A stretch of 48,739 bases of DNA. It comes from Acidobacteriota bacterium. GTDB taxonomy: Bacteria; Acidobacteriota; Polarisedimenticolia; Polarisedimenticolales; DASRJG01. Below are positions 2,656 to 32,187 of the stretch, piece by piece; position 1 is the stretch's first letter; each line of letters opens with the position of its first letter. The notes beneath the pieces are model-generated. The model saw nothing but the letters and a program-made list of their open reading frames with translations. It made no database searches and was not told where the DNA came from. Where the stretch lies: assembly GCA_031393555.1 (NCBI GenBank), contig JANMVW010000317.1, positions 1-48,739 on the forward strand. The letters run 5' to 3'. A program made the translations under genes and the position numbers.

Positions 2656-3819
2656 ATGGTTAGCACGCCGGTCTACCCTCGCCTCCTGAAACCCCCACGC
2701 GAGAGCTTCTTCCTGTTCGGCGTGAGAGGAGTCGGCAAGAGCACCTGGGCCGAATCCAAGTTCCGCGAGGCACGGCGAGTCAATCTCCTCGACGAGGGCG
2801 TGCATCACAGCTTCCTCGCGGACCCCTCTCTATTCGCGGCCGAACTCCTGGACCTGCGGCGAGGGCAGTGGGTCGTCGTGGACGAGGTCCAGAGAATCCC
2901 GAGTCTCTTGAACGACGTTCACCGCCTCATCGAAGCGCGCGGCCTGCGCTTCGCCCTCCTCGGATCGAGCGCCCGCAAGCTCAAGACCGCCGGGACGAAC
3001 CTGCTCGCGGGGCGCGCCACGTGGAAAACGATGTTTCCCTTGGTTCCCGAGGAGCTTGGCGACGACTTCTCGTTGGACGAGGTCTTGGGCTACGGGAGTA
3101 TCCCGCTGGTGTGGAAGTCGGACGACAAGCGCAAAACGCTCGAAGCTTATGTCCAGCTCTACCTCAAGGAGGAGATCCGGGGCGAGGCGCTGGTGCGAAA
3201 CCTCCCCGGATTCGTCAGGTTCCTTCCGATTGCTGCCCTGTTCCACGGCCAAGTCATCAATGTCGCCGGGATCGCTCGCGACGCGGGAACCGCTCGCACA
3301 ACGGTCGCAGGCTACCTCGACATCCTCGAGGACACGCTGCTCGCCGCGCGCCTGCCCGCCTACGAAGCGCGCCTCAGGGTGCGCGAGAGGAAACACCCCA
3401 AGCTCTACTGGGTCGATCCCGGGATTGTGCGAGCGGTGAAGCGACAACTCGGCCCTGTCGCGGGCGAGGAGCGCGGAACGCTGTTCGAAGGCTGGGTGTT
3501 CACGCTGCTCCGAACGTACGCCGAAGAGCGGGAACTCTACGACGAGATCTTCTACTGGTCCCCTCCCGCGGGCTCCGCGACGGAGGTTGATTTCCTCCTG
3601 CGCCGCGGCCGGGAGTTTCTTGCGATCGAAGTGAAATCCAGCGCACGGTATTCATCCGCGCTCACGTCAGGGTTGCGCGCGATCTCCGACCTTGCACATC
3701 TCGTCCGACGAATCCTCGTCTTCACCGGACCTCGCCCGCTCTCAACACCGGAGGGTATCGAGGTCTGGCCAGTTCGCCGTTTCGTGGAAGCCGTCTCGTC
3801 GGGCGCGCTCTGGCCCTGA
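2656..3819 (+). CDS. AAA+ ATPase, COG1373 type (AAA_14 + DUF4143) with C-terminal PD-(D/E)XK-like motif
   Basis: Walker A GVRGVGKST, Walker B VVVDEVQ, LLGSS, PKLYWVDPG, EVDFLL...AIEVK; 387 aa. Confidence 0.9.
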   Translation: MVSTPVYPRLLKPPRESFFLFGVRGVGKSTWAESKFREARRVNLLDEGVHHSFLADPSLFAAELLDLRRGQWVVVDEVQRIPSLLNDVHRLIEARGLRFALLGSSARKLKTAGTNLLAGRATWKTMFPLVPEELGDDFSLDEVLGYGSIPLVWKSDDKRKTLEAYVQLYLKEEIRGEALVRNLPGFVRFLPIAALFHGQVINVAGIARDAGTARTTVAGYLDILEDTLLAARLPAYEARLRVRERKHPKLYWVDPGIVRAVKRQLGPVAGEERGTLFEGWVFTLLRTYAEERELYDEIFYWSPPAGSATEVDFLLRRGREFLAIEVKSSARYSSALTSGLRAISDLAHLVRRILVFTGPRPLSTPEGIEVWPVRRFVEAVSSGALWP

Positions 3820-6600: not shown

Positions 6601-6742
6601 CGGCGCCCCTTCGGGCCCACCCAGGAGAATCCCCCCACCCGGCGGTGAACGTGATTGCACGGGAGCCCGGACCGCCGTACGATCTGGACATGTGGGCGCA
6701 TGGGAAATCAGCCCTAATTAGCGAAAGATCGGAGGACGGGTC

Positions 6743-7570
6743 ATGAATCGATTAGTCGCGGTGCTGATGGCCGTGGCCTTGACCGTCTCGGCGGCGCGCG
6801 CGGCGAACACGATTCAACTCCAGATCGACGGAAGCACCGCCTCGGCGTCCATACAATTGCCTCCGGACATCTCGGTCGAGTTCTCGCTCGCCTTCGAGCA
6901 GGTTTCGGGCCTGTCAGCGCAGAATCTCGGACTCACCGCCGGCCTCGTCGATCCGACGGATGCCACGCTGCTCGCTCGGCTCCCGTCGGGGGCGAGCATC
7001 CCCGCGGCGTTTCCGGTCCTGATCGCGGTCGAGCCCCCCGCCACCGGCTCTCTTTCCTTCAATGGCGTGGTCGCCATCTCGATCCATACGTCGAATCTTC
7101 TCTGGACGCCGGGCACACCCTTGCGCCTGCTTGCCGCCCCGCTCGGCGGAGCCTTCGTCGACATCACGTCCGGCACCAGCGCGGGAAGCTATCGCGCGGG
7201 GGCGAACAAAGGCGGCTTCTCCGAGTTCCTCGTGGTCTCCGACCTGCGCGCGGTCGACACGGTCATCGCGGCGAAATTCGACGGCCTCCAGTCCGTGCTG
7301 ACCCGATACTCGCAGATCATTCCGGCTGGCGTGCGCACGACCCTCCAGGCTCAGCTCGACGCGGCCCGGTCGTCGTATGTCGCGAGCGACCCGCACGGCG
7401 CAGCGGACACGATGGGCACATTTGCGGCGACCGTGCGGGATCACAGCGGTACGGAGATCCCGGATCTCTGGCGCGCCAGCCGCGACGTCGCGGACGTTGC
7501 AGGCGAACTGCGGTCCGGGGCGGCCACCTTGCGCTATAGCCTCCTCCTCAAAGCCAACGCCGGACCCTGA
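6743..7570 (+). CDS. Secreted protein of unknown function (resembles DUF6689 family, from memory)
   Basis: SD GGAGG upstream; signal peptide MNRLVAVLMAVALTVSAARA; motifs IPAAFPVLIAVEPP, GGFSEFLVV, IPDLWRASRD, AGELRSGAATLRYSL. Confidence 0.7.
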   Translation: MNRLVAVLMAVALTVSAARAANTIQLQIDGSTASASIQLPPDISVEFSLAFEQVSGLSAQNLGLTAGLVDPTDATLLARLPSGASIPAAFPVLIAVEPPATGSLSFNGVVAISIHTSNLLWTPGTPLRLLAAPLGGAFVDITSGTSAGSYRAGANKGGFSEFLVVSDLRAVDTVIAAKFDGLQSVLTRYSQIIPAGVRTTLQAQLDAARSSYVASDPHGAADTMGTFAATVRDHSGTEIPDLWRASRDVADVAGELRSGAATLRYSLLLKANAGP

Positions 7571-7587
7571 GTACCACCGGAGGCGGG

Positions 7588-8481
7588 ATGCTCGCCCGGT
7601 TGACCGTGCATTTCCCTCTTCGTCCCGCACGTGCGGCGCTGTTGAGGGGCGAGCAGGACTGCATCGTCGGCCGCGATCCCGAGTGCGATGTCGTTCTCGA
7701 CGACGAACGCGTGTCGCGGAAGCACGCTCGGATTGCGTTCGCGCGCGGCTCGTGGAATCTCACCGACCTCGACAGCAGCAACGGCACCTCGCTCGACGGG
7801 CGCCCCGTCGTGGATGCGGTCATCGAGGGGTCCGCATGGATCGGCTTCGGGGGGCTGTTGGCTCGTTTCGAGCCGACGACCGAAGACAAGGAACGGGACG
7901 AGGCGGCTCACCGCGAGGGACGGTGGCGCAACTCGCTCTCCTTGCAGCGCGAATTGAATCCCGTCCTCGGCGTGCCGAGACTCGTCGAGAGGATCCTGGA
8001 TTCGGTGCTCAGACTCTCGGGAGCGGGGAGGGGATTCGTCCTCCTGGCGCAAGCCGACGGCACGATGGACGTCGTCGCCAGCCGTGGACAGTCCGAGGCC
8101 GAGTCGGGCTCGAAACGGTTTCGCGGAAGCGCCGGAGCGATTCAGCGTGCCATTGAGACCCTCCGGCCCGTGACCGCGTCGGACGCGCGGCTCGATGCCG
8201 CCCTTCAGAATCGTGATAGCGTCGCCGCGGGCGACATCCGCGCTCTTGTTTGCCTGCCGCTGCACGTGGGAGCGCGGGTGCTCGGAGTCGTTTATGCCGA
8301 CAGCCAAGTCGCCGGCACCGCTTTCTCGGAGTTGGACGTGGAGATCCTCGAAGGCCTAGCCTCACAGGCCGGACTCGCGATCGCGGTGGCGCTTCTCGAT
8401 CGCGAGCTCGCAAGCGTGGCGGGGAAGCTCCGCTCGGTCCCGCCCGCCGACCCTGAGCCGCTCGACGGTAACGACCCGTGA
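7588..8481 (+). CDS. FHA + GAF domain protein
   Basis: FHA phospho-Thr-binding residues GR, SRKH and SNGT. C-terminal GAF signature LVCLPL...VLGVVYADS...FSELDVEILEGLASQAGLAI. Confidence 0.88.
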   Translation: MLARLTVHFPLRPARAALLRGEQDCIVGRDPECDVVLDDERVSRKHARIAFARGSWNLTDLDSSNGTSLDGRPVVDAVIEGSAWIGFGGLLARFEPTTEDKERDEAAHREGRWRNSLSLQRELNPVLGVPRLVERILDSVLRLSGAGRGFVLLAQADGTMDVVASRGQSEAESGSKRFRGSAGAIQRAIETLRPVTASDARLDAALQNRDSVAAGDIRALVCLPLHVGARVLGVVYADSQVAGTAFSELDVEILEGLASQAGLAIAVALLDRELASVAGKLRSVPPADPEPLDGNDP

Positions 8482-11400
8482 GCCCCGAATCCGACGAGCC
8501 CGAAAATCAAGGCGGCGGCCGCCCCGGTCCCACACGTTCGAACGCCGATCCGTTACGCCGCCTGGCGCCCGGCTCCCTGCTGAGCGGACGGTACCGGATC
8601 GGCACGCTGCGTGGCGTGGGGGGGATGGGTGTCGTTTACGGCGCCACCGACGAGCAGCTTGGTGTCTCGGTGGCCGTGAAGTTCCTCCGGCCCGAGCTCG
8701 CGGTCGATTCCACGTTCATGGAGCGCTTTCGGCGCGAGCTGATCCTCGGCCGTCAAGTCAGCCACCCCAACGTTGTACGGATTCACGATATCGGCCGGGA
8801 CGGAGACGTCCATTTCCTCACCATGGATCTGGTCGCGGGCAGTTCGCTACGCGAGCTGATCGAACAGCGAGGGCCGCTGGATGAACCGACCGCGATCTTG
8901 ATCCTGCGCCAACTCGCCGAGGCGCTCGGCGCCGCCCACCGCGCGGGAATCGTCCACCGCGATCTCAAACCGTCCAACATCCTGATCGACGAGCAGGGGC
9001 AAGTCCACGTCACCGATTTCGGGGTCGCCGCTTCGTTGGGTTCCCACGGACCGACGCGCACGGGGGAGGTGATCGGGACGCTGGATTACATGTCGCCGGA
9101 GCAAGCACGCGGCGATACCGTCGACACACGAAGCGACATCTACGCTCTCGGCATCGTTTTGTTCGAGATGTTGTCCGGCCGGCTCCCGTTCGCCGGCGGC
9201 TCCGCGGCGGAGTCGCTCGCGCAGCGAATCGCGGGCAAGCGGCGCGACCTGCGAGACCTGGGCGTCAGGGTCTCTCCGCCGGTGCGCAACGTCTTGGCCC
9301 GATGTCTCGTGACCTCGCCGTCGCGGCGGTACCGCTCGACCGAAGAGCTCCTCGCCGAACTCGACAATCCCCGGCGGGCCCGGATCCGGCGTTTTTTGCG
9401 GAGAGCGGCCGTGGTCGCCGCTTTGGCGCTCCTCGGCCTGGGCGCGGTTTGGGGGGTGCTGGCGATAGTGCACCGTCCCGCGGGAAACGCGGCGCGTCAG
9501 GGGGTCGCCGCCGCGGCCCCGCAGAGGACGTCGATCGCAGTCCTGCCGCTGCGCGACGAGACCGGAGATCCGGCCCTCGCTTGGATGTCCTCGGGAATCG
9601 CGGAAATGCTGGCCGATACGCTCGCGCAGAGTCCGAGGCTCCAGGTCGTCGACGGCGCGCGGGTCATTCGAACGGTCGAAGATCTCAAGCTGTCCGGCGA
9701 ATCATGGCCCGACACCGCGTTGGTCAGATTCGGTGAAATTTTCAACTCCGATCGGCTCGTCGTCGGATCCGCAAGGAGCCGGGGCGGCGTGCTGCGCGTC
9801 GATGCGCGGCTGGTCGCGCTTGGTCCCGGCGGCGTGGGCCGTACGATGGCGATTTCCTCCGAGGCCGAAAAACCCGGAGCGCTCGTCGAGGAATTGGGTC
9901 GGGCCATCAGGGCAAGCCTGGACGTTCCGGTTCCGGCGGACGCGGGATCGATCTCCAACTCACCCGCCGCCCTGTCGGCCTACGAGCGCGGAAGCCGGCT
10001 GCTCCTTCGCGGGGACGCGGTGCTCGCCGTTCCCGAGCTGAGGGGCGCCGTCGCCGCCGATCCGGGCTTCGGGTTGGCGTGGCTCCGCCTCGCGGAGGCG
10101 TGCGAAGGGACGGGGCAGACGGAGTGCGCCCAGGAGGCGGTCGACCACGCCGTGAGTTCGATCGGCGGCAGCGAGTCGCGGCTCGGGTATCTCGCGAGAG
10201 CGCGACAGGCGATGCTGCGCGGACGGCCGGAGGCCGCCGAGGGCACTCTGCGCGAGCTCGTGAAGCGATTCCCGGGCGATCTCGAGGCGGCGGTCGCCCA
10301 CGCGGAAGCGCTTGCGCGGGGAGGCCAACTCGTCGAAGCGATGCAAGAGCTCCAGCAAGTGACCCAACATTCGCCGAACCACCCGAAGGCCTGGTTCCTG
10401 CTCGGCAAGTTCGCCATTCTCTCCGGCGACAGCCGCAAGGCCGTCGACGAGTACTTGGTCCGGGCGATGGTCGCTCAGAACATGGTGAAGAGCGATCAAG
10501 GCCGGGCCGACGTTCTCAATGCGCTGGGAGTCGCCTGGCGCGAGCTCGGCGATCTCCAGCAGGCGGAGGACAACTACAGTCGGGCCTCCGAGCTGCGCCA
10601 GCGGATAGGCGATCGGCGAGGCTATGCGACCACGCTGCGCAATCTTGCGCAGATCCGCCTGTCCCGCGGACAACAGGTCCAGGCGGAAAAGACGCTTAGA
10701 GCGGCGATGGAGTTGTTCAAGTCGCTCGACGACCGCGCGGGGCTCGCGGACACCCTGAACGACTTCGGCGTTCTCGAGGAGGGACGCGGCCGTAACACCG
10801 AGGCGCTCGCGCGATACAGGGAGGCGCTGCAGATCCGCCGTGGGGTCGGCGACCGGCGGGGCGAGGCGGAGAGTCTCAACAATGTCGGTTACGCCTACCA
10901 TCTTCTGGGCGAATCCGACAATGCGTCGGCCTACTGGAACCAGGCGCTCGCGGTCCACCGCGAGACCGGCAACCGCGAGGGCGTGATCCTCGTGACGCAA
11001 AGCCTAGGGCAGCTCCAAATTTCACAGGGCCAATGGGACCTCGCGGTGAAGTCGTTCCTCTCGGCGCTGGAAGACAGCCGCGCGATGGAATTGCGATCGG
11101 CCGAGGCGGCGTCGTTGGGGTATCTCGGCAGGCTCGCGCAGTATCAAGGTCGCTACGCGGCGGCCCTATCCTTCTATGCCGAAGCGCTCGGAGCGCTCGA
11201 GGCCCTCAAAGACGCGCACGGTCTTGCGGAGTTCTCGCTGGCACGGGCGGAGAACCTGCTCGAGATGGGGCGCCTCGACGAAGCCGACGCCGACCTCGGC
11301 CGAGCCGGCAGTTACCTCGAGGCGACGCCGAACCTGGAACAGCATGTCGAGTGGCAACGGCTTCGATCGGCGGTCCGCGTCGAGCGCGGGGATTTCGAGG

Positions 11401-11873
11401 GAGCAGCCTCGGGCCTCTCCCAGGCGCGCCGCGAGCTCCGGGGCAACGCGAGCCCGGTCTCGATTCTGGGTCTCGACATCGACGACGGGACGCTGCTGCT
11501 TCGGAAGCGGCGTGTGAGGGAGGCGGCTCGGGCGCTTGAAACGGTCGAGCCGCGCGCCGAGCGGCTCGGCGACATGCCTTTGAAGCTCAAGGCCGCGGAG
11601 GCCGCGGCGCGCGCGGCGCTGCTTGCGGGGGAGAGCCAGAAGTCCGAAAAGCTCGTGGCTCAGGCGCTGCGATGGGTCAACGACTGCGGCACGTGGTCCG
11701 GGACGCACCGCCTGTATCGAATCCAAGGCGCGATCGAGAAGGGACGCGGCAAGACGCAAGCCTCCGAGGCGAGCTTCGCGCGGGCCGCGCTGGAGCTCGA
11801 ACGCATGCAGCAAGGTCTCGACGCGGCGCACACAAGCGCCCTGCGGGACGTCCAGGCCAAGGAGGCATTCTGA
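8478..11873 (+). CDS. Membrane Ser/Thr kinase with TolB-N-like and TPR extracytoplasmic region
   Basis: GVGGMGVVY, VAVK, HRDLKPSNI, DFG, YMSPEQ; TM helix AAVVAALALLGLGAVWGVLAIV; IAVLPL domain; many TPRs (LNALG, LNDFG, LNNVG). GTGA overlap with the upstream gene. Confidence 0.92.
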   Translation: MSPESDEPENQGGGRPGPTRSNADPLRRLAPGSLLSGRYRIGTLRGVGGMGVVYGATDEQLGVSVAVKFLRPELAVDSTFMERFRRELILGRQVSHPNVVRIHDIGRDGDVHFLTMDLVAGSSLRELIEQRGPLDEPTAILILRQLAEALGAAHRAGIVHRDLKPSNILIDEQGQVHVTDFGVAASLGSHGPTRTGEVIGTLDYMSPEQARGDTVDTRSDIYALGIVLFEMLSGRLPFAGGSAAESLAQRIAGKRRDLRDLGVRVSPPVRNVLARCLVTSPSRRYRSTEELLAELDNPRRARIRRFLRRAAVVAALALLGLGAVWGVLAIVHRPAGNAARQGVAAAAPQRTSIAVLPLRDETGDPALAWMSSGIAEMLADTLAQSPRLQVVDGARVIRTVEDLKLSGESWPDTALVRFGEIFNSDRLVVGSARSRGGVLRVDARLVALGPGGVGRTMAISSEAEKPGALVEELGRAIRASLDVPVPADAGSISNSPAALSAYERGSRLLLRGDAVLAVPELRGAVAADPGFGLAWLRLAEACEGTGQTECAQEAVDHAVSSIGGSESRLGYLARARQAMLRGRPEAAEGTLRELVKRFPGDLEAAVAHAEALARGGQLVEAMQELQQVTQHSPNHPKAWFLLGKFAILSGDSRKAVDEYLVRAMVAQNMVKSDQGRADVLNALGVAWRELGDLQQAEDNYSRASELRQRIGDRRGYATTLRNLAQIRLSRGQQVQAEKTLRAAMELFKSLDDRAGLADTLNDFGVLEEGRGRNTEALARYREALQIRRGVGDRRGEAESLNNVGYAYHLLGESDNASAYWNQALAVHRETGNREGVILVTQSLGQLQISQGQWDLAVKSFLSALEDSRAMELRSAEAASLGYLGRLAQYQGRYAAALSFYAEALGALEALKDAHGLAEFSLARAENLLEMGRLDEADADLGRAGSYLEATPNLEQHVEWQRLRSAVRVERGDFEGAASGLSQARRELRGNASPVSILGLDIDDGTLLLRKRRVREAARALETVEPRAERLGDMPLKLKAAEAAARAALLAGESQKSEKLVAQALRWVNDCGTWSGTHRLYRIQGAIEKGRGKTQASEASFARAALELERMQQGLDAAHTSALRDVQAKEAF

Positions 11874-12667
11874 GCGGACGCGAGAAAGATGAATTCCCGT
11901 CGGATCCCGCGCGATCGATCGCCGATCGTCTGCGCGAGATCGCGCGTGAAAACGAAAGGTTGTTCCAGGAGTTGAGCGCGGGCGAGAAGCGCTTCCGGCA
12001 GCTCGCGCGCTCGGTCTGGAGCGTGCAGGAGAATGAAAGGCGTCGACTTGCCCTGGAGCTTCACGACGGGATCGGCCAGACGCTGACCGCGCTCAAGAAT
12101 CAGCTCGAGCGGCTCCGCGCGCCGGGGCGGTCCCGACCGGCGCCTTCGGAAGCGGCGATCGAAGAGCTGATCGCGACGGCGAGCCAGGCCCTCGAAGAGA
12201 TGCGAAGCCTGGCGCGTTTCCTTCGGCCCGCGGTACTCGACGATCTGGGGCTCGAGCCGGCCCTGCGCTGGCTGGCGCGAAATGCCGCGCAGCGATTCAA
12301 CGTCGAGGTGGACTTGCGCGTCTCGGGCCTCTCGGAACGGCTCGGTCCGGAAATCGAAACGTTGGTGTTCCGGGTCGTACAAGAAGCGCTGACCAACGTC
12401 GCCCGGCACTCGGGGGTCGCGCGTGCGGAGGTTGCGGCCACGCGCGAAGACCGCACGCTGCACGTGCTCGTCCGTGACGAAGGGGGGGGGTTCGAACCTC
12501 GGGTGTCGCTCGCCGGGGAGGCCGGCGAAGCCGGTGTCGGACTGCGTGGGATTCGGGATCGGGTCGAGCTGTTCAGCGGAACGCTGCGGATCGACTCGGC
12601 TCCGGGAAAAGGCACCACGATCGCGATCACGGTGCCCCTGGTGGAATCCGGCGGGGACGCATCATGA
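11870..12667 (+). CDS. Sensor-less histidine kinase (HisKA_3/NarX type)
   Basis: H-box ERRRLALELHDGIGQ, N-box QEALTNVARH, DEGGGF, GLRGIRDR. Only a short coiled-coil precedes the H-box. Start proposed at in-frame CTG 11870 after AAGGAGG (11859-11865); TTG alternatives at 11960 and 11972. Confidence 0.85.
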   Translation: MSGREKDEFPSDPARSIADRLREIARENERLFQELSAGEKRFRQLARSVWSVQENERRRLALELHDGIGQTLTALKNQLERLRAPGRSRPAPSEAAIEELIATASQALEEMRSLARFLRPAVLDDLGLEPALRWLARNAAQRFNVEVDLRVSGLSERLGPEIETLVFRVVQEALTNVARHSGVARAEVAATREDRTLHVLVRDEGGGFEPRVSLAGEAGEAGVGLRGIRDRVELFSGTLRIDSAPGKGTTIAITVPLVESGGDAS

Positions 12668-13308
12668 GTCTCATCCGCGTCCTCGTGGCCGACGATCACA
12701 CCCTCGTCCGCACCGGCCTCGTCAAGATTCTGACCGAGGACGGGGTTTGCGAGGTCGTCGCCGAGGCCTCCGACGGCCTCGAGGCCGTCAAGAAAGCCAT
12801 CGAGACCCGTCCCGACGTCGTGGTGCTCGACATCACGATGCCGCGCCTGAGCGGCATCGAGGCGGTCCGGCGGATCCGGCAGGAGCTTCCCGCGGTGCGC
12901 ATCCTCGCGCTGACGGTGCACGATGAAGAGGAGTACGTGCTTCACATGGTCAAGGCGGGTGCTTCGGGGTATCTCGTGAAGGACAGCGCCGCGCGCGAGC
13001 TGCTGGATGCCGTCGTCGCGCTCCATCGAGGGCAGGGGTACTTCGGCCCGCAGGCGGCACGGGTTCTGGCGGATCGGTACGCACGGCCGGGACCCGAATC
13101 CACCGATCCCTACGGCGCGTTGACTTCCAGGGAGCGCGAGGTGTTCCATCTCGTCGCGGAGGGACGATCCACGAAGGAGATCGCAGGCGCCCTCGGCATC
13201 GGCGTCAAGACCGCCGAGAACCACCGGACGCGCGTGATGCACAAGCTCGGCGTGCACAACGCGGCTGAGCTGGTCCGCTACGCCGCGCGCAAGGGCTTGA
13301 TCGACTGA
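12664..13308 (+). CDS. NarL/FixJ-family response regulator (REC + LuxR HTH)
   Basis: ADDH, LDITMP, GYLVK; LTSREREVFHLVAEGRSTKEIA...VKTAENHR. ATGA overlap with the kinase gene. Confidence 0.95.
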   Translation: MSLIRVLVADDHTLVRTGLVKILTEDGVCEVVAEASDGLEAVKKAIETRPDVVVLDITMPRLSGIEAVRRIRQELPAVRILALTVHDEEEYVLHMVKAGASGYLVKDSAARELLDAVVALHRGQGYFGPQAARVLADRYARPGPESTDPYGALTSREREVFHLVAEGRSTKEIAGALGIGVKTAENHRTRVMHKLGVHNAAELVRYAARKGLID

Positions 13309-13310
13309 CG

Positions 13311-15428
13311 ATGATTTCGCACCGCGCCGCCTTTCTTTTGTGTGTCCTCGCAGCCGGAGCTCCGGCATGCTCGGGCCGGCCCGCCGGCCAACTTTTTGAG
13401 GCCCGACCCTCGATCCTGCTCGTGACCATCGACACGTTGCGAGCGGACCACGTGGGTTGTTACGGCAGCGCGGAGGCCGAGACGCCGAACCTCGACCGGC
13501 TGGCTGCCCGTGGCGTTTTGTTCGACGATGCGCGGAGCCACGTCCCGCTGACGGCACCCTCTCACGCGACGATCCTGACAGGCGTGCTCCCGCCACGGCA
13601 CGGTGTGCGGGGTAACGGAACTTCCCATCTGGCGGCGGATGCGCCGGCAGTGGCCGTGGCCCTCCATGACGGCGGCTACCACACCGCTGCCGTGGTCGCG
13701 TCGGTCGTCCTCGACCGGGCCACCGGATTGAACCGCGGGTTCGATTCGTACGACGACAACCAGCGGGTGGGGCCAAGATCCGCGTTCCAGTATTTGGAGC
13801 GAGGGGCCAGTCAGGTCGAGAGCGCCGCGCTGGGCGCCGTAGACCGCCTCGAGCGGCCGTTTTTTGTCGGGGTTCATTTTTATTACCCGCACCAGCCGTG
13901 GGTCGCTCCGTCGCCGTTCGCCGAGCGCCACGTGGGACGGGGCTACGATGCGGAGATCGCCTTTTCCGACGCAGCGTTCGGGGGCGTCCTGCGGGCGGCG
14001 ACGCTTCGTGCGGGCGACAACCTCGTCGTGGTCGTCGCGTCGGATCACGGCGAGAGCCTGGGTGAGCACGGAGAAAACCAGCACGGCTACACGCTCCACC
14101 GCGGAGTTCTGCGCGTTCCCCTCATTGTGGCGGGCCCCGGGATTCCGCACGGCCGTGTGGTTTCCACGACGGTGGGCCTCGTCGACCTCGCCCCGACGCT
14201 CGCCGACCTGGCTCACGTCGAGCTGCGAGGCGCGTCGGGTCTGAGCCTGAGCCGCTTCTGGAGGGACGGCGCCACGTCCGTCGCCGACGCGGACGCGGCG
14301 TTGTGGGAGGAGACTCTCCACCCGCTTTTCGATTCGGGATGGGCGCCGCTGCGCGGGATCCTCGTCCGCGGGTGGCACTTCGTGGATGCGCCTCGACCGG
14401 AACTGTACGATCGCGTGGCCGACCCCAACGATCGCGTGGACGTCGCGACCCAGAACGAGGCGAAGGTCGAGGAGCTGCGGTCGCGCCTTCGGGCGCTCGG
14501 CGATTCGATCGGGGATGTCCCGGAACCCGGCGTCGAGTCGGCCGCGACGCCGGAGGAGAAGGAGCGCCGGGAGAGGCTCGCCTCACTCGGCTACGTATCC
14601 GCGCCGGTCCCTCCAAAGCCCGTCGGCGGCCGGCTCGACCCGAAGGATGGACTCCCTGGGTTTCTGGCCGTCGAAGCGGCGGAGCGGCTGATCGCGCGGG
14701 GCGACGCGGCCCAGGCGCGCGAGCTCGTCGAACCTCACCTGCGGCGTGACCCCGCCAATCCCCGCCTCTGGCACACACTGGGTAAGGCACGGATGCGTCT
14801 TTCAGAGCTCGCCGGCGCGGAGGACGCGGTCCGGCGGTCAGTCGCTCTTGCCCCCGGGCTCGAATTCGTCCGTTACACGCTCGCGGAGATCCTCATGCGC
14901 AGGGGGAATGAAACCGGCGCTCGAGCGGAGCTCGCGGGGATCGTGCGCGACAACCCGCGAAGCGTCGATGCGAGCCTGCAGCTCGCGGCGATGGCGGCCA
15001 AGAGGAACGACCACGAAGCTTCGGAGGTGATTCTCCTCGCAGCCTTCAAGGCCGGCGCCCGCGATCCGGATCTAGTCGACCGGCTCGGTCAGTCCATGGT
15101 CCTGAAGGGCCGCGAGGTCGAAGCCCAAGCTTACTTCGCCGAGTCCCTCGCCCTCTGGCCGGACGATCCCAACGCGCTGTACGAGCTGGGGCAGGCCGCG
15201 CTCCGCGCCGGCGAACCGGCTCGGGCGATCGAGTGGCTCCGGCGCTGTGCGGAAGGTCCCAAGGCCTTCGACTGCAGGATCGAGCTGGCGCGCGCCTACG
15301 TCGTGGGGCCGCGGGATCTCGCGGCCGCACGGCGCGAGCTTCTGGCGGCTCGCGAGCACGTCGCCGAACCCCGGCTTCTGGCGGAAGTGGATCGCCGGCT
15401 CCGCGCGCTCAACGACATGGCCGACTGA
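13311..15428 (+). CDS. Sulfatase-like (alkaline phosphatase superfamily) exported protein with C-terminal TPRs
   Basis: TIDTLRADH, TPNLDRLA, PLTAPSHATILTG, SDHGE, LASLGYV, then TPRs. Starts 2 nt after the regulator's stop. Confidence 0.85.
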   Translation: MISHRAAFLLCVLAAGAPACSGRPAGQLFEARPSILLVTIDTLRADHVGCYGSAEAETPNLDRLAARGVLFDDARSHVPLTAPSHATILTGVLPPRHGVRGNGTSHLAADAPAVAVALHDGGYHTAAVVASVVLDRATGLNRGFDSYDDNQRVGPRSAFQYLERGASQVESAALGAVDRLERPFFVGVHFYYPHQPWVAPSPFAERHVGRGYDAEIAFSDAAFGGVLRAATLRAGDNLVVVVASDHGESLGEHGENQHGYTLHRGVLRVPLIVAGPGIPHGRVVSTTVGLVDLAPTLADLAHVELRGASGLSLSRFWRDGATSVADADAALWEETLHPLFDSGWAPLRGILVRGWHFVDAPRPELYDRVADPNDRVDVATQNEAKVEELRSRLRALGDSIGDVPEPGVESAATPEEKERRERLASLGYVSAPVPPKPVGGRLDPKDGLPGFLAVEAAERLIARGDAAQARELVEPHLRRDPANPRLWHTLGKARMRLSELAGAEDAVRRSVALAPGLEFVRYTLAEILMRRGNETGARAELAGIVRDNPRSVDASLQLAAMAAKRNDHEASEVILLAAFKAGARDPDLVDRLGQSMVLKGREVEAQAYFAESLALWPDDPNALYELGQAALRAGEPARAIEWLRRCAEGPKAFDCRIELARAYVVGPRDLAAARRELLAAREHVAEPRLLAEVDRRLRALNDMAD

Positions 15429-15531: not shown

Positions 15532-18500
15532 ATGAACACCTTTTCTGTTTCGCGCATCCTGGGCGCCCGATCCGCTTTCGTCATGGCGCTGATCGTCGCT
15601 GTCGGCGTCGCCGTCACGACGACGCCGGTCTTTGCTATTCGCACGCCCGCCGTCGAGTCGCTGAACACGCGGGTCCTGGCACCAGCGGGGTTCGTCGCGA
15701 CCGTAGCTCCCGCGGAGCTCTCCACGGTGATCGAGGAGGTTTCCGCCGAGACGCTGGCTGCGGTCTCGGCGTTCGAAGCGGAGGCCGGGCCGGATTGGCG
15801 GTTCTACGTCGACAGACGCTCGGGGGGCATGGCCCTGGTGGAGGGCCGCGGGATCGCATGGACGCCGGACAACGGCAGCCAGGTCAGCCTCGCCGCTTTC
15901 GAGGCGAGGTCCCGGCAGTTCATGCGGCGCTACCCGAGCTTTTTCCGGGTTCCCGACGCGCAGCTCGTGCTCGACGCCAAAGCCTCCGTGAACGTCGGGG
16001 AGCTGGGAACGCACTGGAACGTGGTCTACCGGCAAGTCGTCGGCGGAGTGCCCGTCGAGGGAGCGCGTGTCGTCTTCCGCATCGCGCACGGGAACCTCGT
16101 GCAGTTCGGCGTCGATCGCACGGTTCCGATCGAGACGGCCTCGAACAGGGTGTCGGGGCTCTTGACCGCGACGCAGGCGCGCAGCGCGCTGGCCCAGTAC
16201 GTGGGAGGCCTGCTCGCGACCGACCGATTCACGGAAGAAGGGACGTTGTCTTGGATTCCACGTGGGGTCGATGAGAACGGTCCCTATACGGGGCCGATTG
16301 GCGCCGGCTGGAAATCCGAAATCGTGTACGGGTTCACGTTCCTGCGCACCGGATCCAACGCGTCCTGGCACGCGCTCGTGGACGCGAAAACCGGTGAAGT
16401 CCTCCGCTTCGTCGATGCGACCGACTACGCGGCGCTGGCCAAGGCCTCGGTCTTCACGTCGACGAACTGCGCGGATCCGCTGAACTGCGTTCCGGGCAGC
16501 GCCACCGAAGTCGGCATCACGATGCCCTTCGCGAACCTCTCGTTCGCCGGTGGCACCTGCACCGGCGACGCCTGTTACACGAACGCCGCGGGCGCGTTCA
16601 ACTACCCGTCCGGCGCGGTCTCCGCAACGACGGCGCTCGACGGAAAGTACTTCCGGCTCATCGACGGATGCGGCGCCCTCGCCTCGTCGGCCGTGGCCCC
16701 CGGCAGCCTCGACCTGGGGACCTCCGATCCCAACCCCCCGCTCAACACCAATTACGACTGCGCCCCGGCCACCCGGCAGTCTCCGCCCAACAGCGGGCCG
16801 GTCACGGGGGGATCCGGCGACACGCACGCCGCTCGCAACGCTTTCTACCACCTCAATTTGATCAACGAGAAGGCGAGGGTCTACCTTCCCGGCAACGACT
16901 GGGTGAAGGGAATCGACGGTGGGTCGGGCGCGGCTCTGCTCAACGTCAATCTTCCGCCGGCGTGCAACGCGTTCTGGCTCGGCGCGAGCGGGTCCCTCAA
17001 TTTCACCAAGGCGACACCCGGCCTCGGCTGCAACAACACAGGGGAGATCGCCGACGTCTTCCTGCATGAGTGGGGCCATGGTCTCGACCAGAACGACGCC
17101 ACGGGCACCGCGCCGGAATCCGGCACGGGAGAGGCCATGGGGGATACGTTTGCGATCCTTCAGGGACAGCACTCCTGCATCGGCCCGGGATTTTCTCTCG
17201 ACGTATCGGGAGCCTGGGGAAATCAGGCCGGCTACGGCACGGGATCGGCTCTGTGCACCGGAGTGCGCGACTCCGACTACACCCGGTTTTGCTATCACGG
17301 CACGACCATGAGCTGCTCGGCATCGCCGGATCCAGGCGATGCTCCCAACGGCTCGCGGTCGGGCTTCTCGCCACTGCCGAACCCGCCCGATTCCGGGACC
17401 CCGGCCCGTTGGAACACCATGATCTCCGGAGCCTCCAACGCGACGAATGGCCAGTCCAATTTCTACAACTGCGCCGGGCCGGAGACCAACGGCTGTGCGG
17501 GGGCGCTCAATCACGGCTGCCATTGCGAGTCGATCATCGGTTCGCAAGCCAACTGGGACCTCGCCAAGAAGTTGATCGCGTTCGAGTTTGGCGGCGACAT
17601 CTACAGGGCGCCCCAAGCAGCCACCGAGGTCTCGGGTTGGCAGTACATGGACCGCCTTTGGTACCTGACGCGGGACCTGTCCGTATCTTCGTACTCCGCG
17701 ACGGGACCGGCCCCCGGGGGCACAACCAATGGATGCGGCATCAACAATTGGTTTTCCACCTACCGATTCATCGACGACGATGACGGCAATCTGGCCGACG
17801 GAACCCCGCACGCCGGCATCATCTTCCAGGCCATGGACCTCCACGCGATCGCGTGCGGGAGCGCGTCGGATCCGAGCAACCAGCCCTCGGGGTGCCCGTC
17901 GCCCGTCGCCGCCCCTGTTTTGTCCGCATGCGACAACAAGGCCCCCGTTCAGCTCAATTGGACGGCTTCGGCGGGCGCCACGCAGTACCGCGTGCTCCGT
18001 AACACATTGGGATGCGGTTTCGGCTTCACGCCCATCGGAACGGTCACCGGGGGAAGGACCTACTACGAAGACGCCGAGGTGGCGTCCGGCATTCCGTATT
18101 ACTACAGCGTCCAGCCCGTGGGCGTGACCCAGTCCTGTTACGGGCAGGCCTCGAACTGCATCGTCGTCACGCCGACCACCTGCGCGGCGACGCCGGTCGG
18201 TCCCCCGACGGGGGTGACTCTGGGCACGCCGGCCAACAACCAGGTCAGCATCTCCTGGAACGCGGTCGTTGGCGCCGGCTCGTACAAGATCTTCCGCAAG
18301 GCCGGAGACTGCTCATCCAGCGCTCCCTTCGTCGCCGTTTCGGTCGTCAATGCGCCGACGACCTCCTTCCTCGACAGCGACGGACTGGGAGGCCAGCAAA
18401 CGTACGCTTACCAGATCGCAACCTCGGACGCGACCTGCGCGGCTTGCGCGTCCGCTCCATCGGCGTGCCAGTCCACCGTCGTTACGGGCGCCTGCCTGGT

Positions 18501-19878
18501 CCGCCCGGATTTCGGCGGATTGCGCACCCTCTCGGCCGCGGCGGAGGGCCAGTGCCGGCTCGACCTCAATTGGTCCGCCGGTGCCGCGCACTGCGAGGGC
18601 ACGCTCAGCTACAGCATCTACCGGTCGACGAACTCTACGTTCACACCCGCCGTTTCGAATCGCATCGCGAGCGGACTCACGTCCACGTCCTACAGCGATT
18701 CGGCCGTCTTCGGGGGCACGCGGTACTACTACATCGTGCGGGCTGTCGACGGCGCGGGAAACTCCGACACGAACGTCGTGAGACTCTCCGAACGGCCGGC
18801 CGGGACCCTGACGCCGGGGACGTACTCCGACAACGCCGGCGACACCGGCACCGCGAACTTCGGTCTCGGCACGATCGACGTCTACGCGAACACGTGGACC
18901 GTGCGTCCGAACGACAACCCGAACAACGCCACGAAGATCTACGCGACGACGAGCAGCGGCAACTACCTCGACAGCAGTTGCATGGCCCTCGAAAGCGAGA
19001 CGATCTTCCTCGGCGCGAATCCCACGCTGAGCTTCAGCTCGCGCTACGACACCGAGCAAGGGTGGGACGGCGGCTACGTCGACGTGGCCACCGAGGCGGG
19101 CGGATTCAACAACTGGACCAAGCTCGACACCATCAACTACCCCGGAGTCATGACCGGACCTCTCGGAGACCCGGCGTGCGGCACGCCCGGATTCGCCGAC
19201 GGCCAACGGGTCTTCACGGGAACGTCGCCGGTTGCCTACGACCCGTTCAGCGGGTCGTTGTCCGCCTACGCCAACCAGAGGGTGCGGATCCGGTTCCTCT
19301 TCAGTTCGGACTCGTCGACCAATCAGACCGGCTGGTTCATCGACGACATCTCCATTACCGATGCAAAGCTCCCCGGGCCCTGTACGACGGACCTGTGCTT
19401 CGGAGTGTCCTGCAACGACGGGAACGCGTGCACGGACGACGCCTGCAATCCAAGTAACGGGCAGTGCGTCTTCACGAACGACAACACGAACACCTGTAGC
19501 GACGGAAATGCCTGCACGACCGGCGACGCCTGCGGCGGCGGTGCGTGCAGCGGCACGCCCGTCGGGAATCCGGTGGAGGTCGGGAACAGCCTCCGGCTTT
19601 CGCAAAGCGGTGTCACCTCCACCGTCTCGTGGAGCGACGACGGCAACCCCGGGACGTTCCATATCTACAGGGGAATGCGAACCACCGTGGCGCCGTGGAG
19701 CTACAACCAACAGTGCCGGGGAGGTTCGATCGCGGGAACCAGCACGACCGACGGCGATACGCCGTCGTCCTCGTCCACGTACTTCTACTTCGTGACGCGC
19801 ACGACGGCGTGCGGCGAGTCGGTCGCCGGACGGGACAGCACGGGAGCCGCCGTTCCAAACGGCAGCCCATGCCCCTAG
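15532..19878 (+). CDS. Large secreted gluzincin (M4/M36-like) metalloprotease with propeptide, FN3 domains, jelly-roll domain, Cys-rich repeats and conserved C-terminal domain
   Basis: SD GAGGGG; signal peptide; FTP/PepSY-like YRQVVGGVPVEGA and LVDAKTGEVL; HEWGH...GEAMGD; FN3-like LNW...Y.VLR...YYYSV; WDGGYV...GWFIDDI; CNDGNACTDDAC repeats. Confidence 0.82.
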   Translation: MNTFSVSRILGARSAFVMALIVAVGVAVTTTPVFAIRTPAVESLNTRVLAPAGFVATVAPAELSTVIEEVSAETLAAVSAFEAEAGPDWRFYVDRRSGGMALVEGRGIAWTPDNGSQVSLAAFEARSRQFMRRYPSFFRVPDAQLVLDAKASVNVGELGTHWNVVYRQVVGGVPVEGARVVFRIAHGNLVQFGVDRTVPIETASNRVSGLLTATQARSALAQYVGGLLATDRFTEEGTLSWIPRGVDENGPYTGPIGAGWKSEIVYGFTFLRTGSNASWHALVDAKTGEVLRFVDATDYAALAKASVFTSTNCADPLNCVPGSATEVGITMPFANLSFAGGTCTGDACYTNAAGAFNYPSGAVSATTALDGKYFRLIDGCGALASSAVAPGSLDLGTSDPNPPLNTNYDCAPATRQSPPNSGPVTGGSGDTHAARNAFYHLNLINEKARVYLPGNDWVKGIDGGSGAALLNVNLPPACNAFWLGASGSLNFTKATPGLGCNNTGEIADVFLHEWGHGLDQNDATGTAPESGTGEAMGDTFAILQGQHSCIGPGFSLDVSGAWGNQAGYGTGSALCTGVRDSDYTRFCYHGTTMSCSASPDPGDAPNGSRSGFSPLPNPPDSGTPARWNTMISGASNATNGQSNFYNCAGPETNGCAGALNHGCHCESIIGSQANWDLAKKLIAFEFGGDIYRAPQAATEVSGWQYMDRLWYLTRDLSVSSYSATGPAPGGTTNGCGINNWFSTYRFIDDDDGNLADGTPHAGIIFQAMDLHAIACGSASDPSNQPSGCPSPVAAPVLSACDNKAPVQLNWTASAGATQYRVLRNTLGCGFGFTPIGTVTGGRTYYEDAEVASGIPYYYSVQPVGVTQSCYGQASNCIVVTPTTCAATPVGPPTGVTLGTPANNQVSISWNAVVGAGSYKIFRKAGDCSSSAPFVAVSVVNAPTTSFLDSDGLGGQQTYAYQIATSDATCAACASAPSACQSTVVTGACLVRPDFGGLRTLSAAAEGQCRLDLNWSAGAAHCEGTLSYSIYRSTNSTFTPAVSNRIASGLTSTSYSDSAVFGGTRYYYIVRAVDGAGNSDTNVVRLSERPAGTLTPGTYSDNAGDTGTANFGLGTIDVYANTWTVRPNDNPNNATKIYATTSSGNYLDSSCMALESETIFLGANPTLSFSSRYDTEQGWDGGYVDVATEAGGFNNWTKLDTINYPGVMTGPLGDPACGTPGFADGQRVFTGTSPVAYDPFSGSLSAYANQRVRIRFLFSSDSSTNQTGWFIDDISITDAKLPGPCTTDLCFGVSCNDGNACTDDACNPSNGQCVFTNDNTNTCSDGNACTTGDACGGGACSGTPVGNPVEVGNSLRLSQSGVTSTVSWSDDGNPGTFHIYRGMRTTVAPWSYNQQCRGGSIAGTSTTDGDTPSSSSTYFYFVTRTTACGESVAGRDSTGAAVPNGSPCP

Positions 19879-21847: not shown

Positions 21848-23014
21848 ATGAGCGTGATCCAGCGAGCCGAGCATCTGCGACGCCTGTCGAGCCTGACGCG
21901 GCAGTTCCCGGTCGTCGGGATCTTGGGCGCGCGCCAGGTCGGAAAGACGACTCTCGCCCGGCAGCTGGCCAAGGCGCATCGCGGACCGGTGACCTACTTC
22001 GATCTTGAGAGCGCCGAAGACCTGGCCCGGCTCTCGGATCCCTTGCTCGTGCTTCGGCCGCTGACGGGGCTCATCGTTCTCGACGAGGTTCAGAGGCGTC
22101 CAGACCTCTTCACGCAGCTGCGCGTGCTCGTGGACGAGCCGAAGACCCGCCGCAAGTTCCTCGTGCTCGGGAGCGCATCGCCCGAGCTGCTGCGACAGAC
22201 CTCGGAGACCCTGGCCGGACGCATCGCGTACCACGAGTTGGCGGGCTTGTCTCTCGAGGAAGTGGGTCGACAACACTGGTCGAAGCTGTGGCACCGGGGC
22301 GGGTTCCCGCGATCTTTTCTGGCGCGGTCCGAATCCGACAGTCTTCAGTGGCGCAAGGCCATGATCCGGACGTTCCTCGAGCGGGACATCCCGGCTCTTG
22401 GCTTGCGGATGCCTGCGGCCACGCTCCGGCGGTTCTGGATGATGCTGGCTCATTACCACGGACACGTGTGGAACGCTTCCGAGTTCGCTCGATCCTTCGG
22501 TGTCGCCCACACGACGGTGCAACGCTATCTCGATCTGCTCAGCGCAACTTTCATGGTTCGGCAGCTCCCCGCGTGGCACGAGAACATCGGCAAGCGGCAA
22601 GTCAAGGCTCCGAAGGTCTATCTGAGGGATAGCGGCCTGCTTCACGCGCTGCTCGGTCTCGACGCGGGTGGCGCCATCGAGTCGCATCCGAAAGTCGGCG
22701 CCTCGTGGGAGGGGTTCGCTCTCGATGCCGTCGTGACGCAACTCGGAGCGCTTCCGGAAGAGTGTCACTTCTGGGCGGCTCACTCCGGCGCGGAGCTCGA
22801 TCTTCTGATCGTCCGGGGCAACGTACGGCGTGGATTCGAGTTCAAGAGAACGACGTCTCCGGCGAAGACGCGCTCGATGCACGTCGCGCTCGAAGATCTC
22901 CGGCTGTCGTCGGTCGACGTTATCCACGCGGGATCGAATTCTTTCTCTTTGCACGCGAAGATCCGAGCGATCGCGCTGAGCCGTCTGCTCGAGGATCTCA
23001 AGCCGCTGAAGTAA
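21848..23014 (+). CDS. AAA+ ATPase, COG1373 type (AAA_14 + DUF4143)
   Basis: GARQVGKTT, IVLDEVQ, LGSAS, SETLAGRI, KAPKVYLRDSGLLH, ELDLL...FEFK; 388 aa. Confidence 0.92.
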   Translation: MSVIQRAEHLRRLSSLTRQFPVVGILGARQVGKTTLARQLAKAHRGPVTYFDLESAEDLARLSDPLLVLRPLTGLIVLDEVQRRPDLFTQLRVLVDEPKTRRKFLVLGSASPELLRQTSETLAGRIAYHELAGLSLEEVGRQHWSKLWHRGGFPRSFLARSESDSLQWRKAMIRTFLERDIPALGLRMPAATLRRFWMMLAHYHGHVWNASEFARSFGVAHTTVQRYLDLLSATFMVRQLPAWHENIGKRQVKAPKVYLRDSGLLHALLGLDAGGAIESHPKVGASWEGFALDAVVTQLGALPEECHFWAAHSGAELDLLIVRGNVRRGFEFKRTTSPAKTRSMHVALEDLRLSSVDVIHAGSNSFSLHAKIRAIALSRLLEDLKPLK

Positions 23015-26421: not shown

Positions 26422-27069
26422 ATGGACACTGAGATGAATTTTCGGAGCTGGACTGTGAGAGCCGCAACGATGCTGCTCGTGATGGCCGTTTGGCACCTCC
26501 CGTCCTTATCTAAGGAAGGGGACGGGAACCTGGTGAGCCTCCGTTGGGCGGTGGGGGCTCTGGACGCCGCGGGCAACAAACCGACCGCGATCCGTCAGGA
26601 CACGAAGCTGGAGACGGGGACCAAGCTCAAGCTCCTCGTCGAGCCGCAGTCCAAGGGCTCGGTGTATCTCCTCCTCCTCGATTCGTCGGGCGAGTTGCAG
26701 GTGCTCTACCGAAAGTCGTCGTCCGTGACCAAGGCCGCCGACGGGAAGCCGACCTACATCCCGCCCGGGAGCCAGTGGTTCGAGCTCGAGAAGGGCGCGG
26801 GGATGGAGACGTTCTTCCTGCTCGCGTCGGTCGAACCTCTCAAGGAATTGGAAAAGCTGCTCGACAGCCATGCGCCCGCGCCTGCGGTCGTCGAGGAAGT
26901 CCGGCGGGTCAACAAGGCCAACCGCAATTTCGCGCGGCCGGTCGAGCGACCGGTGATGATCGGGGGACAAACCCGCGGCACGCAAGACACGGCCGGAGCG
27001 ATCGACCAGCTCGCCGTCGAGGTCGAGGCCGAGAAATTCTACGGAAAGACGATCACGATTGATCATTGA
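26422..27069 (+). CDS. Exported DUF4384-like protein
   Basis: SD GGGAGG before ATG 26422; signal-like helix; GTKLKL...VYLLLLDSSGELQVLY...YIPPGSQWFEL...GMETFFLLASVEPL. Confidence 0.7.
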   Translation: MDTEMNFRSWTVRAATMLLVMAVWHLPSLSKEGDGNLVSLRWAVGALDAAGNKPTAIRQDTKLETGTKLKLLVEPQSKGSVYLLLLDSSGELQVLYRKSSSVTKAADGKPTYIPPGSQWFELEKGAGMETFFLLASVEPLKELEKLLDSHAPAPAVVEEVRRVNKANRNFARPVERPVMIGGQTRGTQDTAGAIDQLAVEVEAEKFYGKTITIDH

Positions 27070-32091: not shown

Positions 32092-32187
32092 GAATCTTCC
32101 GGCAATCGTGACTTGTTCAACGTAAATTCCCGCGGGCGCTCGATTCAGCGTCCGTCTTGCGATCCTGAAGGATCGGGGGGTCCCATC

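Follow-up and report, generated by a model that had tools for sequence, protein, structure and literature searches.

A cassette of five co-oriented genes, in which a protein joining an FHA to a GAF domain (hereafter FHA-GAF) might link a receptor-type Ser/Thr kinase to a two-component pair, was analysed in a contig of an uncultured sediment acidobacterium. The window, by which we mean the whole stretch of 48,739 nucleotides under study (contig JANMVW010000317.1 of assembly GCA_031393555.1), has a G+C content of 65-70% and belongs to a genome of 3.79 Mb, which is distributed over 478 contigs and 98.6% complete. The listing of open reading frames and a Pfam scan place five genes on the + strand at 6743-13308, as a first-pass annotation made from the letters alone had read them (Table 1). 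The same five genes stand in the same order in 25 of the 30 distinct loci that have enough flanking sequence to be judged, a recurrence that puts the arrangement far beyond what chance would produce. We propose that FHA-GAF links the Ser/Thr kinase to the histidine kinase and its response regulator, a reading to which we assign a probability of about one half.

Table 1. Genes of the cassette and the region preceding it (positions in the window).
Feature	Positions	Strand	Basis or remark
Upstream intergenic region	6601..6742	+	Presumed promoter location
Exported DUF6689 protein, 275 aa	6743..7570	+	PF20396 match
Cytoplasmic FHA-GAF protein, 297 aa, without output domain	7588..8481	+	Pfam FHA 26-76, GAF 130-266
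Receptor-type Hanks Ser/Thr kinase, 1131 aa	8478..11873	+	Pfam Pkinase and many TPR families
Soluble sensor-less histidine kinase, 265 aa if the start is CTG 11870	11870..12667	+	Pfam HisKA_3 and HATPase_c
NarL/FixJ-type response regulator, 214 aa	12664..13308	+	Pfam Response_reg and GerE

Conservation was surveyed in two collections. Twelve regions around matches to PF20396 (DUF6689) were fetched from a sample of the phylum and searched by tblastn with the window proteins, and a genome collection with one genome per species was scanned with a DUF6689 alignment as the query, which yielded 35 loci. Duplicates were counted once (L026=L015, L029=L014, L054=L020, L055=L018), leaving 41 distinct loci, most of them from Acidobacteriota, including L073, L074 and the window. 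Among the phylum-sample regions, the five genes were found in order in L014, L015, L016, L019 and L020, and L018 contains three cassette genes followed by the contig end. The 35 genome-collection loci comprise 20 with all five genes, one with four genes up to the contig end, ten that are cut earlier and four variants; the ten earlier-cut loci all agree with the cassette order as far as their contigs reach. By their labels, these 35 loci belong to Thermoanaerobaculia/Thermoanaerobaculaceae (20), Acidobacteriota/Acidobacteria (6), Vicinamibacteria (4), Holophagales (1), metagenome-assembled genomes of Gammaproteobacteria (3) and an 'uncultured bacterium' (1). Proteins of the most distant full operons share 28-36% identity with those of the window, and flanking gene families were common to at most 3 of 21 loci. 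The co-conservation of the five genes, for which the first-pass annotation had suggested such a neighbourhood survey, thus holds, and the flanks are not conserved with it.

The variants are informative with regard to the composition of the cassette. In L017 (genome G278) the trio of DUF6689, FHA-GAF and kinase genes is followed by a GAF-sigma54-HTH_8 activator, and in L049 by a REC-sigma54-HTH_8 activator located 22 nucleotides past the kinase stop; in L045 the trio has nothing regulatory after it. L044 and L058 contain the DUF6689 gene (twice in L058) followed directly by the kinase gene, without FHA-GAF or an adjacent histidine kinase and regulator. Both genomes also carry a canonical five-gene operon elsewhere (L073 and L074, respectively), so that L044 and L058 represent paralogous pairs. 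Altogether, the output consists of the histidine kinase and regulator in most loci, of a sigma-54 activator in two, and no output is adjacent in three. The five variants therefore define a constant core of DUF6689 and the kinase, nearly always accompanied by FHA-GAF, and a transcriptional output that is exchangeable. In the otherwise canonical L074 (G402:C13), the DUF6689 and histidine kinase genes each align in two frames, which suggests frameshifts, resulting either from sequencing errors or from decay.

An operon that houses two separate pathways would also accommodate output genes that are swapped or missing in five of the 30 judgeable loci. DUF6689, the Ser/Thr kinase and FHA-GAF would then act on other targets, and the histidine kinase and regulator would only regulate the operon or would answer an unrelated cytoplasmic cue, for instance via the N-terminal helix of the histidine kinase; review passages describe Hanks kinases as usually having many substrates, which fits such an arrangement. 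We nevertheless consider it improbable, since the order of the five genes has been preserved across classes at identities of 28-50% despite a complete turnover of the flanks, and since the histidine kinase contains no domain with which to receive a cue of its own.

The Ser/Thr kinase begins with an N-terminal tail containing Thr19 and continues with the kinase domain (residues 46-288; Pkinase match of 176 bits), in which the catalytic motifs VAVK, HRDLKPSN, DFG and SPE are intact. A single membrane segment was detected by Kyte-Doolittle analysis at residues 306-333, preceded by RRARIRRFLRR, and TPR repeats follow from about residue 500. Given this one segment, the approximately 800 residues behind it are predicted to be periplasmic. 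All 31 kinase sequences compared have T193 and T201 in the activation loop. The tail threonine (Thr19 in the window, motif P-T-R-T/S) occurs in 30 of these 31, the exception being L044, and in 34 of 34 kinases encoded beside FHA-GAF (29 plus five further sequences). In the kinases without an adjacent FHA-GAF gene, the tail motif is deleted (L044) or altered to PTIA (L058). This pattern is the one expected of a docking site for an FHA domain, and the tail could act as such, by analogy with the N-terminus of PknG and GarA.

FHA domains contact phosphate through three loops with the motifs Gly-Arg, Ser-x-x-His and Asn-Gly. All three are present in the FHA-GAF protein of the window, and the corresponding phosphothreonine-binding residues G28, R29, S43, H46, N65 and G66 do not vary among 23 orthologues (alignment A3), in line with the phosphothreonine-reading role that the first-pass annotation had ascribed to this domain; in a smaller alignment (A1), Gln replaces His46 in one sequence, that of L017. 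The GAF assignment relies on a GAF_2 match of 63 bits (cut-off 28.6) and on the GAF fold seen in the structural model. According to this model (mean predicted local distance difference test, pLDDT, 88.6), the protein consists of the FHA domain (1-97), a helix (99-121), the GAF core, a terminal helix of 36 residues (248-283) and a disordered tail. Pfam and the model agree with the earlier description of a protein that has no output domain and ends in a helix. No hydrophobic membrane segment was found in it by Kyte-Doolittle analysis. It is the only protein of this genome that combines FHA and GAF, and its sequence makes it a candidate phosphothreonine-dependent adaptor. Across the phylum sample, the FHA-GAF profile found matches at 1e-40 in 68 of 401 genomes (a tally that includes G152). 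The standalone high scorers come from eight DUF6689 genomes, together with one unlinked protein in G357; the latter (36% identity) was set aside as a paralogue, having neither a kinase nor a histidine kinase gene beside it.

The histidine kinase was recognised by matches to HisKA_3 (57.8 bits) and HATPase_c (49.8 bits), and its catalytic residues H65, N176, D203, G205, G207 and G224 are invariant in 23 orthologues. No membrane segment was detected in it by Kyte-Doolittle analysis and no domain before HisKA_3 by Pfam, which bears out the earlier claim that it has neither a sensor nor a transmembrane part. Only a conserved helix of about 55 residues precedes HisKA_3; it reads IARENERLFQEL, with N28, L31, L35 and E39 conserved in at least 90% of the sequences and R41 invariant. 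As the protein has no membrane segment and no sensor, yet retains invariant catalytic residues and a conserved N-terminal helix, it would need an input. The response regulator (Response_reg 103.9 bits, GerE 66.4 bits) contains the acidic pocket DD 10-11, D55, T83 and K105 in its translation and no membrane segment by Kyte-Doolittle analysis. It is the most conserved of the five gene products (50-78% identity across relatives), and its gene overlaps that of the histidine kinase by 4 nucleotides in most loci. Judged by their sequences, the two proteins have the features of a HisKA_3 and NarL/FixJ two-component system except for a sensor or input domain.

The relatives of the histidine kinase may bear on its origin. 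A GAF family is present in 58 of its 120 nearest longer relatives, as expected from the premise of the first-pass annotation that GAF commonly precedes HisKA_3; the others carry PAS, HAMP or dCache. The window protein aligns with the GAF-GAF-HisKA_3 kinase P0264 from residue 331 of the latter onwards, exactly where its second GAF domain ends. There are hints that the bare kinase descends from a GAF-HisKA_3 kinase. Its residues 22-34 (window 11933-11968) read EIARENERLFQEL and resemble VAIENARLYES at the end of the first GAF domain of P0264, a single BLAST segment with an E value of 1.3, which is not significant; this ENERLF/ENARLY likeness is only an idea as to the origin of the protein.

In the scheme that we infer, as regards both the contacts between the proteins and the direction in which the signal flows, the sensing end would be formed by periplasmic DUF6689 and the large periplasmic TPR region of the one-pass Hanks kinase. 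A stimulus would lead to autophosphorylation of this kinase, including the conserved tail threonine (Thr19, P-T-R-T/S), and the FHA domain of the co-translated FHA-GAF protein would dock on the tail phosphothreonine. FHA-GAF would then act as an adaptor or allosteric module for the adjacent transcriptional output, which in the window would be the sensor-less histidine kinase phosphorylating the NarL-type regulator, and the GAF domain may supply a cytoplasmic small-molecule input. A relay from phosphothreonine to histidine to aspartate is plausible on the basis of the sequences. It is doubtful, although possible, that the terminal helix of the GAF domain docks directly on the N-terminal helix of the histidine kinase, so that the two proteins would be a true split kinase; what is left of a GAF terminal helix that was lost might be the helix IARENERLFQEL, which would now pair with the long terminal helix of FHA-GAF. 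Equally speculative is the idea of a histidine kinase assembled on demand, that is, an incomplete enzyme to which FHA-GAF, as the input domain that it lacks, would be delivered only once the receptor Ser/Thr kinase presents a phosphothreonine, giving an obligate phosphothreonine-phosphohistidine-phosphoaspartate relay with an adaptor that could be re-plugged into sigma-54 activators.

Other proteins contain FHA-GAF as an input module in cis, as far as their domain composition tells. Two Acidobacteriota genomes encode FHA-GAF-HisKA-HATPase_c fusions (L065:1399-3096, 565 aa; L066:826-2550, 574 aa), whose total length is close to that of FHA-GAF plus the histidine kinase here (297 + 265). The 1.5 kb on either side of these two genes showed no kinase and no further Pfam family, and we claim no ancestry for them, only a likeness of parts. 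L069 and L070 are FHA-GAF-SpoIIE proteins, and FHA-GAF-sigma54 activators were found in P0009 (623 aa, scanned) and P0360 (645 aa, from the precomputed Pfam column only). Atlas clusters, which serve as leads only, combine FHA-GAF with SpoIIE, cyclase, GGDEF, sigma54 or HATPase_c, and several are standalone proteins of about 300 aa. A profile search of 1.84 billion representatives was dominated by multi-GAF giants. The predicted complex of two histidine kinase chains and one FHA-GAF chain (alignments A4 and A3) scored 0.31 against a mark of 0.32, with 0.15, 0.32 and 0.31 in the individual runs and no control folds, so that it speaks neither in favour of binding nor against it.

A number of findings weigh against FHA-GAF being the partner of the histidine kinase. 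Across the loci, FHA-GAF follows the Ser/Thr kinase rather than the histidine kinase. Genomes G278, G403 and G404 contain the trio and have no orthologue of the bare histidine kinase genome-wide, their best matches reaching 214-233 bits in frames of 735-1182 aa versus 391 bits for a control orthologue. Moreover, FHA-GAF and Ser/Thr kinase genes overlap by 4 nucleotides in most loci, and P0125 (1478 aa) carries FHA-GAF-Pkinase-TPR, corresponding to the second and third cassette genes, in one chain; this could be a real fusion or a 1-nucleotide error at the 4-nucleotide overlap. The dimerisation domain of the L065 and L066 fusions is HisKA (PF00512) and not HisKA_3. No FHA-GAF-HisKA_3 fusion was found among 16 plus 109 longer relatives of FHA-GAF, retrieved by word-based searches that give weak negatives, the second of which started at 633 aa and is therefore blind to forms of about 560 aa, and FHA was likewise absent from the 120 longer relatives listed for the histidine kinase. 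A GAF remnant within the histidine kinase was rejected, as the comparison of its alignment with that of FHA-GAF gave 3% and pointed to the wrong region. No cognate phosphatase is encoded within the cassette. Lastly, the histidine kinases of the L019 and L020 family are 350-380 aa long and possess an extra N-terminal region of about 90-135 residues.

In part, this last finding amounts to the homologues with an upstream sensor domain that the first-pass annotation had named as evidence against itself, and it is confined to the L019/L020 extension. No Pfam family was found in these extensions even at E <= 10, and a GAF remnant in them was likewise discarded (hhalign probability of 0.2% against FHA-GAF). 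The histidine kinase measures 244-276 aa, with starts chosen by the analyst, in 19 of the 20 five-gene loci of the genome collection; that of L054 (=L020) is the 350-aa form, as deduced from two observations, a gap of 270 nucleotides behind the kinase stop and an ATG directly adjoining this stop. Taken together, the split histidine kinase of the earlier proposal finds a counterpart in the existing FHA-GAF-histidine kinase fusions, but these involve HisKA only. Likewise, the pairing of FHA-GAF with the histidine kinase agrees with the synteny of the cassette, but the tie to the Ser/Thr kinase is tighter. FHA-GAF looks like a general adaptor of the Ser/Thr kinase rather than strictly the missing half of the histidine kinase.

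The tight coupling of FHA-GAF to the Ser/Thr kinase, and its retention where the histidine kinase is absent, would also suit a direct route. Here the target of Ser/Thr phosphorylation by the kinase would be either the bare histidine kinase or the NarL regulator, and FHA-GAF would be a GarA-like regulator or substrate of the kinase that tunes it in response to a cytoplasmic ligand and makes no contact with the histidine kinase. Precedents exist for both halves of this alternative, which is the main rival although the less likely reading, namely DegS (PMC3033389) and PknG, whose autophosphorylated N-terminus recruits GarA (PMC12189002). It leaves unexplained, however, that both loci lacking FHA-GAF also lack an adjacent histidine kinase and regulator (n=2, with a full operon elsewhere in both genomes). 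Furthermore, no Ser or Thr of the histidine kinase has been singled out as the target, in an alignment not systematically screened for this; T73 and S115 in the DHp region are nearly invariant. A GarA-like role is also at odds with the FHA-GAF protein having no N-terminal acceptor tail, its FHA fold starting at residue 2.

Two phosphorylation languages predominate in bacteria, that of His-Asp two-component systems and that of eukaryote-like Ser/Thr kinases, and cross-talk between them is known mostly as scattered cross-phosphorylation. EspA, a hybrid kinase of the HisKA type, unites FHA, PAS, HisKA, HATPase and a receiver in one protein, and the output of its pathway is protein turnover. The Esp system of Myxococcus xanthus, in which the FHA-bearing hybrid histidine kinase EspA acts with the Ser/Thr kinases PktA5/PktB8 (PMC4320627), is the nearest precedent for a signal passing from phosphothreonine to histidine. 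It resembles the cassette in that one pathway, which also includes EspB, combines a histidine kinase with an FHA domain and with Ser/Thr kinases of the membrane. It differs in that FHA is fused to the kinase in EspA, whereas FHA-GAF is a separate protein here, and in that the output of the cassette is a HisKA_3 kinase with a NarL DNA-binding regulator. The EspA model NF052573 ('serine histidine kinase EspA') gave 38.4 bits with the window protein, from the FHA part only, against a cut-off of 1400.

DegU is a member of the NarL family, and the Hanks kinases acting on its partner are not encoded with DegS. The DegS-DegU pair is similar to the cassette in combining a soluble histidine kinase without a membrane sensor, a NarL-family regulator and an input from Hanks kinases, which phosphorylate DegS of Bacillus subtilis at Ser76 (PMC3033389). 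This phosphorylation is direct and requires no FHA adaptor, and DegS has an N-terminal input domain, in contrast to the helix of only about 55 residues in the cassette protein. GarA carries an N-terminal acceptor tail. It controls metabolic enzymes rather than a two-component pair and contains no GAF domain, and the GarA/OdhI model NF041660 reached 36 bits against a cut-off of 200 with the window protein, in which FHA starts at residue 2 and GAF follows. The PknG/PknB-GarA (OdhI) systems are nevertheless instructive, as the conserved tail threonine found here fits the recruitment of an FHA protein by an autophosphorylated kinase tail or loop, such as that of GarA by the N-terminus of PknG (PMC12189002; titles in PMC6213207). 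As a fourth comparison, P0009 and P0360 show that an FHA-GAF module can drive a transcriptional output, presumably under the control of a Ser/Thr kinase, with the difference that input and output are fused and no histidine kinase step is involved. FHA-domain sigma-54 enhancer-binding proteins of Myxococcus were reportedly described by Jelsbak, Givskov and Kaiser in 2005. The fused proteins of L065 and L066, finally, hold the three functional parts FHA, GAF and histidine kinase in one chain.

In none of the Esp, DegS-DegU, PknG/PknB-GarA and FHA sigma-54 activator systems does one operon combine a free-standing FHA-GAF protein with a bare HisKA_3 kinase and DUF6689. In full-text literature, with subscription journals largely outside its coverage, no description of such an operon, of DUF6689 or of 'FHA-GAF' was found, which agrees with the earlier remark that such a relay is not known to have been characterised. 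The cassette seems to be a form of the known cross-talk from Ser/Thr kinases to two-component systems, whose wiring is apparently unstudied at the bench. Its significance lies in being compact, hard-wired and evolutionarily stable, with a sensor accessory, a receptor kinase, a phosphothreonine reader, a sensor-less histidine kinase and a regulator in one operon. Together with its natural variants, in which the output is swapped or the adaptor lost, it offers a clean test bed for the question of whether an FHA adaptor can gate a histidine kinase. Moreover, it places DUF6689, and likewise the standalone FHA-GAF proteins that are widespread, in a functional context for the first time.

The gene junctions had been described in the first-pass annotation as a 17-nucleotide gap and three stop/start overlaps. 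The gap between the DUF6689 and FHA-GAF genes (7571-7587) was read from the sequence as claimed, and so were two of the overlaps, in which the kinase GTG at 8478 overlaps the FHA-GAF stop (8479-8481) and the regulator ATG at 12664 overlaps the histidine kinase stop (12665-12667). At 11870-11872, however, the codon is CTG and thus neither ATG, GTG nor TTG. The motif AAGGAGG is found at 11859-11865, 4 nucleotides 5' of this CTG. Canonical in-frame starts upstream are limited to ATG 11672 and GTG 11693, some 180-200 nucleotides inside the Ser/Thr kinase gene, and the nearest ones downstream are TTG 11960 and TTG 11972. Since relatives of the same genus have GTG or TTG at the equivalent position, and since a 4-nucleotide stop/start overlap between the kinase and histidine kinase genes occurs in three related loci, the start of the histidine kinase gene is very likely a rare codon at 11870 or close to it.

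The missing canonical start is what might be adduced for an artefact, either a chance adjacency or a faulty annotation with a wrong histidine kinase frame or an assembly error at the junction. This explanation is effectively refuted by the orthologous histidine kinases in 24 other loci, by their invariant catalytic residues and by contigs from four independent sediment metagenome runs, which bridge the junction, and indeed span the whole block, without a gap. Among the 40 listed of 65 differences between these metagenome contigs and the window, none falls at the histidine kinase start (11859-11873). The stretch is present in nine sequencing runs, none of which is listed as RNA. At 10174-10177, minor contigs of two sediment runs lack 3 nucleotides, which shortens the TPR region of the Ser/Thr kinase without a change of frame. 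A peak of metagenome depth at 8870-9096 stems from the kinase domains of other organisms.

A pattern scan of the region upstream of the DUF6689 gene returned a weak sigma-54-like match, TGGACATGTGGGCGC, which ends 43 nucleotides before the ATG, and no sigma-70-like site was found in this intergenic region. Sites found by the promoter and terminator scans were no more numerous than in shuffled sequences. Close matches to the sigma-54 consensus (TGGC-N8-TTTGCA) are located 38-118 nucleotides before the DUF6689 start in L046, L047, L050 and L059, all of one clade. In other clades, sigma-70-like boxes (TTGGCG...TATCAT or TATTAT) were seen by eye upstream of DUF6689.

The first gene product gave a PF20396 match of 274.3 bits (cut-off 27) covering profile positions 8-272 of 275, and Kyte-Doolittle analysis revealed a hydrophobic, signal-peptide-like N-terminus at residues 3-22; the latter agrees with its being secreted, as had been claimed. 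Its gene is a neighbour of the kinase gene wherever the contig is long enough to tell. PF20396 is rare within the phylum sample, having been detected in 13 of 401 genomes, in 12 of them above the cut-off and in 8 of the 13 at full length. The AlphaFold2 model (pLDDT 92.4) consists of a beta-sandwich (23-167) and a four-helix bundle (171-272). Foldseek found no match for it in the PDB at E <= 0.001, and the matches of the VIA wide search were confined to the C-terminal four-helix bundle. These were 7nsn_B (Z 14.5), a pectin methylesterase inhibitor (Z 12.2) and the sensor bundles of McpS and TorS (Z 11.1 and 9.9), values that fall in a range common for helical bundles and come from searches with the whole model. 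As far as the model allows, DUF6689 is thus without a specific structural relative in these searches. In class-level relatives only the C-terminal, four-helix half of DUF6689 occurs, as part of NHL-repeat fusion proteins in L021 and L022 and within shorter proteins of 276-295 aa in L024 and L025; in all four loci the gene with this half is convergent to one for a related TPR Ser/Thr kinase, without FHA-GAF, histidine kinase or regulator genes. The DUF6689 match of L023 contains an internal TAG.

With respect to the remainder of the contig, a gene for a sulfatase with TPR repeats (705 aa, 13311-15428, + strand) starts 3 nucleotides past the regulator stop and may, on account of this distance, be co-transcribed with the cassette; it was not found next to the cassette in the relatives examined. 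It is followed at 15532-19878 (+) by a gene whose 1448-aa product begins with a hydrophobic segment and weakly matches InhA-like MAM and Dicty_CTDC. The same two Pfam families are matched by a 1415-aa protein encoded directly after the regulator in a genome of the same genus (L015:10632-14879). Among the other signalling genes of the contig, one at 139-2604 codes for a second Ser/Thr kinase, with PD40 repeats; the 138 bases with which the contig opens contain no start for its frame, and its Pkinase match sets in at profile position 51. The stretch 27059-32091 holds a CHASE2 adenylate/guanylate cyclase and, behind it, a TPR-CHAT protein, and an FG-GAP/beta-helix protein of 2249 aa is encoded at 32113-38862. 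Two AAA_14/DUF4143 ATPases are encoded on the contig, at 2656-3819 and 21848-23014.

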